From NCBI RefSeq assembly GCF_022846255.1, contig NZ_AP025682.1: 64,000 nt of DNA. One strand, 5' to 3'. Position numbers: made by a program. Source of the stretch: Escherichia coli (GTDB lineage Bacteria > Pseudomonadota > Gammaproteobacteria > Enterobacterales > Enterobacteriaceae). The first letter of the stretch is position 1. Every line of letters begins with the position of its first letter. Positions 23,701-29,700 of this stretch are shown in pieces.

Positions 23701-26700
23701 TGGTTTTCGGAAAAGCGGATTGCCGATATCCGGCAGGTTGAAACCACAGCGCGCTATCTTGGCACGGCGCTGTACTGGATAGCCGCCAGTATCAATATCA
23801 GGCCGGGCTATGATTATTATTTTTACGTTCGCAGTGTGAACACCGTTGGCAAATCTGCATTCGTGGAGGCTGTCGGTCAGGCGAGCGATGATGCGGAAGG
23901 TTACCTGGATTTTTTCAAAGGCAAGATAACCGAATCCCATCTCGGCAAGGAGCTGCTGGAAAAAGTCGAACTGACGGAGGGTAACGCCAGCAAACTGGAG
24001 GAGTTTTCGAAAGAGTGGAAGGACGCCATTGATAAATGGAATGCCATGTGGGGCGTCAAAATTGAGCAGACCAGAGACGGCAAACATTATGTCACGGGTA
24101 TTGGTCTCAGCATGGAGGACACGGTGAGCCAGTTTCTGGTTGCCGCTAACCGTATCGCGTTTATTGATCCGGCAAACGGGAATGAAACGCCGATGTTTGT
24201 GGCGCAGGGCAATCAGATATTCATGAACGACGTGTTCCTGAAACGCCTGACGGCCCCCACCATTACCAGTGGTGGAAATCCACCGGCATTTTCCCTGACA
24301 CCGGACGGAAAGCTGACTGCTAAAAATGCGGATATCAGTGGCAGTGTGAATGCGAACGCCGGGACGCTCAACAACGTCACGATAAATGAGAACTGTACGA
24401 TTAAAGGGAAACTGTCAGCCAATCAGATTGAAGGCGATATTGTCAAAACAGTGGGTAAGGCTTTCCCGCGGGATTCCCGTGCACCGGAGCAGTGGCCATC
24501 AGGGACCATTACCGTCAGAGTCTATGACGATCAGCCTTTTGACCGGCAAATTGTTATTCCCGCGGTGGCGTTTCGCGGAGCTAAACATGAGCGGGAGAAT
24601 AGCGATACTTATTCGTCATGCCGCCTGATAGTGAAGAAAAACGGTGCTGAAATTTATAACCGTACCGCACAGGATAGTACGCTGATTTATACAGGTGTTA
24701 TTGATATGCCTGCAGGCAGTGGCGTAATGACACTGGAGTTTTCTGTATCAGCATGGTGGGTAAATGGTTGGTATCCCACAGCAAGTATCAGCGATTTGCT
24801 GGTTGTGGTGATGAAGAAATCCACTGCAGGTATCACGATTAGCTGAATTTTATAACCCATATACGGGCGCCAGAAATGGCGCCTTTTTTATTGCAGAAAA
24901 GCGAGAGGTAATTATGCGTAAAGTTTGTGCCGCCATTTTGTCCGCCGCCATCTGTCTGGTCGTATCCGGTGCGCCTGCATGGGCATCTGAGCAGCAGGCC
25001 ACGCTGAGCGCGGGGTATCTTCATGCCCGGACGACCGCTCCCGGTAGCGATAATCTGAACGGGATTAACGTGAAATACCGTTATGAATTTACGGACACGC
25101 TGGGGCTGATTACGTCCTTCAGTTATGCCGACGCCGAAGATGAACATAAAACGCATTACAGCGATACCCGCTGGCATGAAGATTCCGTGCGTAACCGCTG
25201 GTTCAGCGTAATGGCGGGGCCGTCTGTGCGTGTGAATGAATGGTTCAGTGCGTATGCGATGGGGGGTGTGGCTTACAGCCGTGTGTCGACTTTTTCCGGG
25301 GATTATCTCCGCGTAACTGACAACACGGGGAAAACGCACGATGTGCTGACCGGAAGTGATGACGGTCGCCACAGCAACACGTCTCTGGCGTGGGGGGCTG
25401 GCGTGCAGTTTAACCCGACCGAATCCGTGGCCATTGATATTGCTTATGAAGGCTCCGGCAGTGGTGACTGGCGCACTGACGGTTTCATCGTGGGTGTCGG
25501 TTATAAATTCTGATTAGCCAGGTAACACAGTGTTATGACAGCCCGCCGGTTCAGGCGGGCTTTTTTGTGGGGTGAATATGGCAGTAAAGATTTCAGGTGT
25601 CCTGAAAGACGGCACAGGAAAACCGGTACAGAACTGCACCATTCAACTGAAAGCCAGACGTAACAGCACCACGGTGGTGGTGAACACGGTGGCCTCTGAA
25701 AATCCGGATGAAGCCGGGCGTTACAGCATGGACGTTGAGTACGGTCAGTACAGCGTTATTCTGTTGGTGGAGGGGTTCCCGCCATCACATGCCGGGACTA
25801 TCACCGTGTATGAAGATTCTCAACCCGGTACGCTGAATGATTTTCTCGGTGCCATGACGGAGGATGATGCCCGTCCGGAGGCACTGCGCCGTTTTGAAGT
25901 GATGGTGGAAGAGGTGGCGCGTAACGCGTCCGCAGTGGCACAGAACACGGCAGCCGCGAAGAAGTCAGCCGGCGATGCCAGCACATCAGCCCGTGAGGCG
26001 GCAACCCATGCGACTGATGCTGCAGACTCAGCACGCGCAGCCAGCACGTCAGCCGGACAGGCCGTGTCGTCGGCTCAGTCAGCGTCTTCCAGCGCAGGAA
26101 CGGCATCAGCAAAGGCCACTGAAGCATCAAAAAGTGCTGCCGCTGCAGAGTCCTCAAAAAGCGCGGCGGCCACCAGTGCCGGTGCGGCAAAAACGTCAGA
26201 AACGAATGCTTCAGCGTCACAACAATCAGCAGCCACTTCTGCATCCACCGCGACTACGAAAGCGTCAGAAGCTGCCACCTCAGCCCGGGATGCGGCGGCC
26301 TCAAAAGAGGCAGCGAAATCATCAGAAACGAACGCATCCTCGAGCGCCAGTAGTTCCGCTTCCTCGGCAACGGCGGCAGGAAATTCCGCGAAGGCGGCAA
26401 AAACGTCCGAGACGAACGCCAGGTCTTCTGAGACGGCAGCGGGACAGAGCGCCTCAGCTGCGGCAGGCTCAAAAACAGCGGCTGCATCATCTGCCAGTGC
26501 CGCGTCAACAAGTGCCGGGCAGGCCTCAGCCAGTGCCACTGCCGCCGGAAAATCGGCAGAAAGCGCTGCATTGTCCGCTTCAACAGCCACAACGAAGGCT
26601 GGCGAAGCCGCTGAACAGGCCAGCGCAGCAGCGAGGTCTGCTTCCGCAGCGAAGACATCCGAAACGAACGCGAAAGCGTCGGAAACCAGCGCAGAATCCT

Positions 26701-29700
26701 CAAAAACGGCAGCCGCATCGTCCGCCAGTGCGGCGGCGTCATCGGCATCATCTGCGTCTGCTTCAAAAGATGAGGCGACCAGACAGGCGTCAGCAGCGAA
26801 GGACAGTGCCACGACGGCATCCACGAAGGCGACAGAGGCTGCTGGCAGTGCGACGGCGGCAGCACAGAGCAAAAGTACGGCAGAATCCGCCGCAACGCGC
26901 GCTGAGACAGCAGCAAAACGGGCAGAGGATATTGCATCCGCCGTGGCGCTTGAGGATGCAAGCACGACGAAAAAGGGGGTAGTACAGCTCAGCAGTGCGA
27001 CCAACAGCACTTCCGAGTCACTGGCGGCAACGCCAAAAGCCGTTAAGGCCGCGTATGACCTGGCTAACGGGAAATATACCGCTCAGGACGCTACGACAGC
27101 ACAAAAAGGAATTGTCCAGCTCAGTAGTGCAACCAACAGCGCATCTGAAACGCTTGCTGCGACATCGAAAGCAGTGAAAGCAGCTAATGACAATGCGAAT
27201 GGTCGGGTACCTTCTGCCCGTAAGGTGAATGGTAAGGCGCTTTCAGCGGATATAACACTGACACCGAAAGATATTGGTACGCTTAACTCAACAACTATGT
27301 CATTCAGCGGTGGTGCTGGTTGGTTCAAATTAGCAACGGTAACCATGCCGCAGGCGAGTTCTGTTGTTTCAATTACGTTGATTGGTGGGGCTGGATATAA
27401 CGTCGGTTCACCTCAACAGGCAGGTATATCTGAACTTGTTTTGCGTGCAGGTAATGGTAATCCGAAGGGGATTACTGGTGCTTTATGGCAGCGCACATCG
27501 GCAGGGTTTACAAATTTTGCCTGGGTCAATACATCTGGTGATACTTACGATATTTACGTTGCAATCGGAAATTATGCGACTGGTGTAAATATTCAATGGG
27601 ATTATACCAGTAATGCCAGCGTAACGATTCATACGTCACCAGCATATTCTGCTAATAAGCCGGAAGGGTTAACGGACGGTACAGTTTATTCACTCTATAC
27701 GCCATCAGAGCAGTTTTATCCGCCTGGCGCACCAATCCCGTGGCCATCGGATACCGTTCCGTCTGGTTATGCCCTGATGCAGGGGCAGACTTTTGACAAA
27801 TCTGCCTACCCGAAACTTGCAGTCGCTTATCCGTCAGGCGTGATCCCTGATATGCGTGGCTGGACGATTAAGGGCAAGCCCGCCAGTGGTCGTGCCGTAT
27901 TGTCTCAGGAGCAGGACGGCATTAAATCGCACACCCACAGCGCCAGCGCATCCAGTACGGATATGGGTACGAAAACCACATCGTCGTTTGATTACGGCAC
28001 TAAATCCACGAATAACACCGGGGCGCATACGCACAGTCTGAGCGGCTCTACAAGCTCGGCCGGAGCACACTCGCACGTTGATGGTCGCAGGTTTAATACA
28101 AGCACTTTTAAAGACACCTATCAGTATGGTTCTACAGCTGTCGGAAGTAACTCATACCAGGTACAAGGGGCGGTTGGTCTGGGCATTGGCACGATGGCGA
28201 ATACGAACTCTGCTGGCGCGCATACCCACTCACTGTCCGGCACTGCTGCAAGCGCAGGTGCACACGCACATACTGTCGGTATTGGTGCTCATACGCACTC
28301 CGTTGCGATTGGCTCACATGGACACACCATCACCGTTAACGCTGCTGGTAACGCGGAAAACACCGTCAAAAACATCGCATTTAACTATATTGTGAGGCTT
28401 GCATAATGGCATTCAGAATGAGTGAACAAGCACGGACCATAAAAATTTATAATCTGCTGGCCGGAACTAATGAATTTATTGGTGAAGGTGACGCATATAT
28501 TCCGCCTCATACAGGTCTGCCAGCAAACAGTACCGATATTGCACCACCAGATATTCCTGCTGGCTTTGTGGCTGTTTTCAACAGTGATGAGGCATCGTGG
28601 CATCTCGTTGAAGACCATCGGGGTAAAACGGTTTATGACGTAGCGTCAGGGGACGAGTTATTTATTTCTGAACTCGGTCCGTTACCGGAAAATGTTACCT
28701 GGTTATCGCCGGAAGGGGAGTTTCAGAAGTGGAACGGCACAGCCTGGGTGAAAGATGCAGAAGCAGAAAAACTGTTCCGGATCCGGGAGGCGGAAGAAAC
28801 AAAAAACAGCCTGATGCAGGTAGCCAGTGAGCATATTGCGCCACTTCAGGATGCTGTAGATCTGGAAATCGCAACGGAGGAAGAAACCTCATTGCTGGAA
28901 GCCTGGAAAAAGTATCGGGTGTTGCTGAACCGTGTTGATACATCAACTGCACCTGATATTGAGTGGCCTACGAACCCTGTCAGGGAGTAATCATTGGGAT
29001 TATGCCGCAGCACGTCTTAAGCAAGAACGTGCTGCGGTTGGATGCTATTTTTTCCCTGAAGCGGAAAACATTACTACAGTACCTTGAACCTTGGTTTTAA
29101 CATTCTCGAAATGCTCTGAGAGTATATGTGTTAAGCCTTCTTCGGAATCTTTTGTGTTTGAAAAGATGCCTTTCTGATTGTAAATGCGCATCAGTTTTTG
29201 ACCGAAGCTATTGTGCACAACTCCATCGCCAAGAATTGTGGCTCCGTATAGAGTTCCATCGTCAGTTAAGGCCTGCGCCGCATTGCGTATTACACAGCTT
29301 TTTGTAGATATATTTCCAGGCAGACAGTGAAGAAGGTAAAACATGGAAATGGAATCAAATTGACCATGTAACGCCGCGGGATAAGGTTCAAAAACATCAT
29401 GGTTAATTTTATGTTTAATTTTTGATTCCCCAGCCCTTGTAGATGCCGCGTTCAGGCTAGCTTCGTTCAAATCCATTAAAGATATCAGACTACTCTCAGG
29501 TACGTGAGTAAGGTAAAACCCAGTTCCAACACCAATATCCAGATGGTTGTTACCTAAATGTTCCAGAAAGTGTGGAAGAAGGTGTTCCTTTGTAGGACAT
29601 CCCCATGCAAGCCGATTTGATACTCCCAAAACCCACCAGTCATAAAGCTTTAGGGTAAGTGGTGTGTAAATTTTAGCCCCATCATCTGTGTTTTTTTTCA

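Follow-up and report, generated by a model that had tools for sequence, protein, structure and literature searches.

The closest described counterpart of the gene considered here is that of the side tail fibre protein Stf of Ur-lambda (774 amino acids, aa; PDB 9E7M/9MGH; Sci Adv 2025, PMC12617516). Ur-lambda Stf forms trimers, is carried as four side fibres per virion, binds OmpC and makes adsorption 10-30-fold faster, and it is non-essential. Its collar domain constitutes a dodecameric collar at the gpV-gpM junction, and its proximal coiled coil has been defined at residues 102-393 (PMC12617516). Related proteins are found among prophage fibres of enterohaemorrhagic Escherichia coli (EHEC) with the same PF08400 N-terminal domain, in which the Ala/Ser segment PCoil was named. 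PCoil was shown by experiment to be a trimeric coiled coil, and its alleles differ in length by multiples of seven (Ghosh et al. 2012, PMC3368898). The third described system is gp37 of phage T4 (PDB 2XGF), whose needle holds seven coordinated irons, each bound by histidines of three chains and critical for folding. These histidines face the trimer axis, and the receptor contacts lie in tip residues outside the axial histidines (PMC6957217).

Here we analysed a stretch of 64,000 nucleotides (nt) of the E. coli contig NZ_AP025682.1 (assembly GCF_022846255.1), called the window below, in which the side tail fibre gene stf occupies positions 25578..28406 on the plus strand. The analysis covered the integrity of the open reading frame (ORF), domain homologies, heptad periodicity, motif counts and a comparison with homologues. 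We conclude that this is very probably an intact, ordinary stf gene of a lambda-like prophage integrated at argW, and that its product would, by homology, be a modular homotrimer. No data contradicting an intact lambdoid stf were seen. The protein is of an already annotated, known kind, and each of its repeat classes has a published structural explanation.

The window gene shares with Ur-lambda stf the J-lom-stf-tfa locus and the published order of parts. The N-terminal 94 aa of the two proteins are ~96% identical, and both contain an Ala/Ser coiled-coil rod, a Phage_fiber_2 unit and a gp37-type needle with HxH motifs. Compared with Ur-lambda Stf, the window protein has 105 additional shaft residues (15 heptads, window aa 308-412), one additional 44-aa fibre unit, an unrelated middle cassette (window ~aa 545-712, lambda ~aa 394-535), one SFDYGTK repeat fewer, seven HxH motifs instead of eight and a different distal tip segment. 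With the PfN-PCoil proteins of EHEC (PMC3368898) it shares PF08400 followed by a leucine-poor Ala/Ser heptad coiled coil, as well as Pf2 (PF03406) units, and in both families allele lengths differ by multiples of seven. The EHEC proteins continue into collagen triple helices and PfC, whereas the window protein continues into a predicted beta-rich cassette and a gp37-type needle. T4 gp37 is ~75% identical over the last 243 residues of the window protein, with a shared collar and seven HxH motifs in the same order. However, the stretch from HxH 3 to HxH 4, with which the T4 tip contacts the receptor, has 12 additional residues in the window protein and a different sequence. The rest of the window protein is unrelated to gp37, and the chaperone is a lambda-type Tfa here and gp38 in T4.

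The stf gene and its prophage

The preliminary description of this DNA had read stf as a single, full-length ORF of 942 aa, and both the ORF and the gene identification hold. The ORF starts with ATG and stops at 28404-28406. An alternative GTG start at 25572 would give a 944-aa product. The ATG is favoured because it is preceded by a G-rich ribosome-binding site (25567-25572) and because the same start is annotated in a near-identical RefSeq gene; we therefore use the 942-aa product. As in lambda-type Stf proteins, the N-terminus is a collar-forming domain (collar/attachment domain, aa 1-94, 25578..25859, plus strand). It matches Pfam phage_tail_N (PF08400) over aa 1-134 with E=4e-73 and the Ur-lambda Stf collar domain (PDB 9E7M/9MGH) with E=5e-53.

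The position of the gene is also that of a lambda-type stf. The order is J (21463-24846), lom (24914-25513; Pfam Ail_Lom), stf and tfa, the tail fibre assembly chaperone gene (28406..28990, plus strand; 194 aa; PF02413, Caudo_TAP, E=2.7e-45). Tfa is 94% identical to lambda Tfa, and the TAA stop of stf overlaps the ATG of tfa as TAATG, so that tfa is translationally coupled to stf. Between lom and stf, immediately 5' of the stf ribosome-binding site, the plus strand contains a GC-rich, terminator-like hairpin (AGCCCGCC / GGTTCA / GGCGGGCT) followed by a run of six T's (25540..25566). Late transcription would have to read through this putative terminator.

The prophage occupies the window from its left edge up to the argW attachment region. 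There, all on the minus strand, follow intS (32336-33529), encoding a tyrosine integrase with an Arm-DNA-binding domain, the tRNA-Arg(CCT) gene argW (33655-33729) and yfdC (33805-34737). This is a lambdoid prophage integrated at argW. Its stf/tfa end adjoins the integrase gene, whereas in lambda it lies at the far end. Two tandem elements, considered on account of the integrase gene beside the tail-fibre end, were rejected: the argW attachment region normally consists of intS-argW-yfdC, and relatives share the layout.

The strongest competing explanation is that stf is an intact-looking relic of a defective prophage, which is not assembled and serves as a reservoir of modules for recombination with incoming phages. 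Many stf copies of E. coli do reside in prophages that are cryptic; stfR, for example, lies in Rac-like elements with adjacent insertion sequence (IS) insertions. In complete E. coli genomes, places matching the window stf numbered two per genome in the median and 16 at most. Temperate phages are known to acquire DNA from defective prophages (PMC3945230), and the window holds only part of the prophage. Against this explanation, J, lom, stf and tfa are all full length, large same-strand ORFs are contiguous upstream, and no IS element or frameshift was found within or beside stf. Furthermore, the fibre units described below have kept their protein sequence while their codons diverged, which makes purifying selection evident. 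A relic is thus an unlikely alternative to the intact stf gene proposed here.

Coiled-coil rod and Phage_fiber_2 units

The N-terminal domain is followed, as in lambda, by a long proximal coiled-coil rod with Ala at two core positions. This Ala/Ser-rich shaft (PCoil, aa 102-458, 25881..26951, plus strand) comprises 51 heptads with no register break; in a sliding-window test one register extended from ~aa 114 to the end (~458). Residues 136-460 consist of 38% Ala, 24% Ser and 12% Thr. Up to lag 56, autocorrelation peaked (z=7-10) whenever the lag was a multiple of 7, and the remaining lags were at or below expectation. In the heptad layout of aa 102-458, Ser occupies position 1 of 73% of the heptads, and Ala occupies position 2 in 69% and position 5 in 90%.

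The preliminary description had listed at least four degenerate repeats in the shaft. A motif search recovered all four as K[TS]SETNA heptads at aa 205, 247, 275 and 359 (nt 26190, 26316, 26400 and 26652; span 26190..26672, plus strand). Their spacings of 42, 28 and 84 aa are all multiples of 7 within the unbroken heptad segment. Thus, the four motifs are single heptads of one continuous rod of 51 and not independent, longer repeats. In a seed-based repeat search, the 29-nt copies at these motifs were 69-79% identical to the reference copy.

The shaft region also contains long ORFs of 235-335 aa in other frames, at 25975-26982 (plus strand), 26075-27010 (minus strand) and 26254-26961 (minus strand). 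They translate to low-complexity sequence rich in Pro/Arg/Gln or in Ala/Asp/Phe and look like by-products of GCN/AGC-rich heptad coding, not genes.

Behind the rod stand two tandem Phage_fiber_2 (PF03406) units, each with a KG[VI]VQLSSATNS motif: unit 1 at aa 466-509 (26973..27104) and unit 2 at aa 510-553 (27105..27236), both on the plus strand. The Pfam profile, which describes a 42-residue repeat, matched two stretches with 118 bits (cut-off 22; E=1.3e-34). The unit is homologous to one motif of the phage Mu tail fibre gpS (residues ~115-150; PDB 5YVQ). These units had been described before as a near-perfect tandem duplication of about 35 aa. The tandem arrangement was confirmed; the period, however, is 44 aa (132 nt), made up of a conserved 33-aa core and an 11-aa linker, and the repetition is far from perfect. 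At the protein level the units agree at 27 of 33 core positions (82%) and at 27 of 44 positions overall; at the nucleotide level, at 68/99 and 75/132 (57%), respectively. Codons agree for only 8 of the 27 conserved residues, and exact identity extends over 9 nt at most. Since the protein was kept similar while nucleotides and codons diverged, the two units are an old duplication held similar at the protein level.

Self-comparison of 25578-28406 revealed no significant nucleotide repeats in this allele. The longest exact direct repeat in stf is 14 nt and joins K[TS]SETNA copies 1 and 3. Repeated 10-, 12- and 14-mers numbered 17, 3 and 1, which is no excess over the 17.7±6.1, 2.0±1.9 and 0.3±0.8 obtained when codons were permuted within each domain. 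Tandem Repeats Finder, run on 25000-29500, returned only three trivial arrays of 9-12 nt, none of them relevant. The seed-based search yielded short families, 60-87% identical, in the Ala/Ser region and at the HxH motifs. Such low-identity families arise because the Ala/Ser heptad rod uses a restricted codon set, and the codon shuffle predicts the same. The gene therefore contains no head-to-tail nucleotide repeats fit for slippage or homologous recombination, of the kind found in hypervariable, contingency-type loci.

Length variation among homologues

The family is widespread, in keeping with an ordinary stf gene: of 5426 complete E. coli genomes, 5077 gave a match to the window stf, and 1389 had a place that spanned 80% or more of the query; the related protein clusters number at least 8000. 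We compared the window protein with 134 E. coli homologues, consisting of 14 fetched and translated loci and 120 cluster representatives. Motifs were counted directly in the fetched sequences because the low-complexity shaft biases whole-protein searches: coverage is under-reported by tblastn, which masks the shaft, and phmmer scores favour alleles with longer low-complexity regions. A 483-nt junction query was also run against the 5426 genomes; megablast aligned three-unit alleles out of register, and its rows give no unit-number counts. The nearest genome copy is that of E. coli VCSW7 (WP_223024330.1), which has equal length and 98.8% nucleotide and 99.2% amino-acid identity.

Homologue lengths range from 774 aa (Ur-lambda) to 1188 aa, which places the 942 aa of the window protein in the middle to low part of the range. 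The earlier statement that lambda Stf is shorter is correct (by 168 aa for Ur-lambda), as is that of a broken gene in laboratory lambda, where stf is split into orf-401/orf-314. The shaft of the window protein, in contrast, is not expanded as had been proposed. The first fibre unit starts at aa 466, as in the window, in 13 of the 14 intact fetched loci, the exception being Ur-lambda, and in 107 of the 120 representatives; in five more it is offset by 1-2 residues owing to the N-terminal start. Likewise, E. coli prophage alleles annotated as "tail fiber N-terminal domain-containing protein" have first segments of 465 residues that are equal in length in nearly all, and all of them have seven HxH motifs. 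Because aa 466 is the commonest position, the window shaft has the commonest length, and lambda is the short allele.

Shorter shafts were found in seven representatives with complete N-termini, each with one deletion. The deletions measure 70, 98, 105, 112, 112, 140 and 154 aa, that is, 10-22 whole heptads; in lambda, the 105-aa gap lies at window aa 308-412. Three of the seven coincide with KxSETNA copy pairs (1-3, 1-4 and 2-4), which is suggestive of short-homology, in-register recombination, the gap positions being partly set by the aligner.

The number of fibre units per homologue was one, two or three, always 44 aa apart. Together with the heptad deletions, this bears out the expectation that repeat number differs between homologues. 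Clusters with the same 207-aa cassette as the window form a simple series: 18 have one unit, 8 have two and 4 have three, corresponding to 898, 942 and 986 aa. The O157 and O113 alleles and those related to them contain three units (971-987 aa), compared with two in the window. K-12 StfR (1120 aa) has a single unit and a much longer middle cassette, whereas the window allele pairs its two units with the shortest one. The last unit and the GAPIPWP motif lie 207, 360, 400, 417, 457, 460 or 497 aa apart, and the window falls into the shortest class, a second respect in which its fibre is not expanded. Length variation thus comes mainly from swaps of the middle cassette, and changes in unit number and rare heptad deletions contribute less. 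In longer Stf alleles (clusters P0015, P0037, P0003, P0001 and P0009), the distance from the last unit to the collar steps by exactly 40 aa (360/400; 417/457/497), which hints at another repeat class in those cassettes that is absent from the window allele.

Comparison of the units across alleles points to how their number may change. Unit 2 of the window is the counterpart of the third unit in three-unit alleles and matches it at 127-130 of 132 nt in strains 2013C-3277, FWSEC0010, Z1766 and LSN03. Units 1 and 2 of the three-unit alleles are 79-95% identical at the nucleotide level, with up to 86 nt of uninterrupted identity. The window's unit 1 is a chimera: its first ~100 nt resemble unit 1 and its last ~30 nt unit 2 of the three-unit alleles, so that the 132-nt difference reaches from ~nt 100 in unit 1 to the corresponding position (~nt 100) in unit 2. 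Such chimerism is the footprint expected of an in-register unequal exchange, which could have been a 132-nt insertion or a deletion. On a larger scale, the window stf has 100% identity to that of VCSW7 over most of its length, but identity drops to 93-97% within the first 300 nt and within aa 351-450. Against 2013C-3277, the 5' two-thirds are 94-97% identical and the final 140 codons 99-100%. Because identity varies by segment in this way, the pattern indicates patchwise recombination among stf alleles.

These data also bear on the explanation offered first, according to which the fibre is unusually expanded, its internal nucleotide repeats recombine, the population is heterogeneous in repeat number and fibre length is a fast-switching trait. 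The one-, two- and three-unit homologues, the whole-heptad deletions (three of seven at KxSETNA pairs), the similar units 1 and 2 of three-unit alleles and the chimeric unit 1 would all fit it. In this allele, however, the idea that nucleotide repeats could recombine finds no support: the two units are too diverged, with no more than 9 consecutive identical bases, whereas ~25 identical bp or more are required for RecA-dependent recombination in E. coli. Moreover, repeated words are not in excess over the codon shuffle, Tandem Repeats Finder gave nothing relevant, the shaft is of the commonest length, and the KxSETNA coincidence is only suggestive, given the aligner's influence on gap positions. 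We consider a fast-switching, expanded fibre very improbable, more so than a prophage relic.

Middle cassette, tip and proposed function

Between the fibre repeats and the tip of this ordinary stf product lies an exchangeable middle module (aa 554-712, 27237..27713, plus strand). It had no Pfam match and no PDB sequence match, and it matches the PHROG tail-fibre families phrog_3299, phrog_21552 and phrog_6722. The module is predicted to be beta-rich, with strand assignments that come from a low-confidence AlphaFold2 model.

The C-terminal part (aa 700-942, 27675..28403, plus strand) is a T4 gp37-type receptor-binding tip, with a collar followed by a needle (PDB 2XGF, E=7.8e-88); it also matches Pfam Collar (PF07484, aa 717-764, E=6e-11) and Phage_fiber (PF03335). 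The needle contains seven HxH motifs at aa 785-916 (nt 27930-28325), all of which align in order with the iron sites of 2XGF. The repeated GAHTHS/HxH motifs previously noticed at the tip are therefore real, three of the seven being exactly GAHTHS. They are not a variable repeat: seven were counted in 116 of the 120 representatives and in all intact prophage loci fetched, and eight in lambda. The only stretch of the tip that diverges strongly from gp37 is the distal segment between HxH 3 and HxH 4 (~aa 834-878, nt 28077-28211, plus strand). Because the seven motifs align with the gp37 iron sites and the divergence falls between the third and the fourth, the sequence argues that the HxH motifs are fixed structural sites and that the variable part lies between them. 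That they instead mainly present metal or bind receptors at the surface, an "iron Trojan horse" proposed for HxH-bearing fibres (PMC11705849), is hardly credible here, since the gp37 histidines face the trimer axis and bind buried irons critical for folding and structure, with receptor contacts elsewhere in the tip (PMC6957217), and since the seven motifs are conserved while the intervening segment varies.

Taken together with the described systems, these features suggest how the fibre may be built and work. Judged by its homologues Ur-lambda Stf and T4 gp37, the product would be a homotrimer whose N-terminal domain docks on the tail tube/tip junction. The rod of ~357 residues in 51 Ala/Ser heptads, with Ala at the core, would be ~50 nm long, as the rise in a coiled-coil rod is ~0.15 nm per residue. 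It would lead into the two 44-residue Phage_fiber_2 units, then the exchangeable, putatively beta-rich cassette, and finally the gp37-type collar and needle. By analogy with gp37, each of the seven HxH motifs, contributed by three chains, would coordinate one iron, and the irons would rivet the interwoven needle. Receptor specificity may lie in the divergent distal stretch that separates HxH 3 from HxH 4. Tfa, the product of the next, translationally coupled gene downstream, would act as a chaperone in tip folding. The fibre would then, as in Ur-lambda, speed reversible adsorption before J binds its own receptor.

Two points limit this interpretation. Needles of the gp37 type bind OmpC and/or the LPS core through the distal tip, but the segment at aa 834-878 here is unlike both T4 and lambda and so points to no particular receptor. 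In addition, the AlphaFold2 monomer, predicted from a 25-sequence alignment, gives the helical shaft weak support: it shows a helix at aa 99-459 and strands at aa 559-705 at a mean predicted local distance difference test (pLDDT) score of 38 and a predicted template modelling (pTM) score of 0.26. This confidence is too low for a fold search, and the model served for a weak statement on secondary structure alone.

Two further features of the prophage lie downstream of stf. A 155-nt direct repeat, 92% identical, links the 3' end of tfa (28814-28968) to a partial second tfa ORF (29770-30039; repeat at 29863-30017). The two copies bracket an opposite-strand gene for a class I S-adenosylmethionine (SAM)-dependent methyltransferase (29045-29713), and the layout recurs in E. 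coli 2013C-3277 and 2002-3211. Judged by its length and similarity, this pair, unlike anything within stf, would be able to recombine. Between the tail-fibre end and intS lies an ORF of 479 aa (30434-31873) with a hydrophobic N-terminus. It has only weak serine-hydrolase Pfam matches (E=0.0014), is named alpha/beta hydrolase in RefSeq relatives and is probably prophage cargo.

Two findings on Stf proteins with gp37-type tips are mildly new, the clean series of one to three units and the set of deletions quantised in heptads; to our knowledge, no explicit description exists of such a unit series on a fibre that is the same in all other parts. One may speculate that side-fibre length is a tuned, quantised trait, in which whole-heptad deletions, at ~1 nm per heptad, and 1-3 units fit the reach of the tip to the thickness of O-antigen or capsule, two-unit alleles such as this one being "locked" by synonymous divergence. 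We regard this as doubtful. An annotation as intact Stf, with a tip of the gp37 type and a Tfa of the lambda type, is justified, and little beyond that is gained. For lambda-based particles with chimeric Stf, it may be of use that natural junctions lie behind the coiled coil, behind the last Phage_fiber_2 unit and in front of the collar, and that natural alleles tolerate 1-3 fibre units and the loss of 10-22 heptads.

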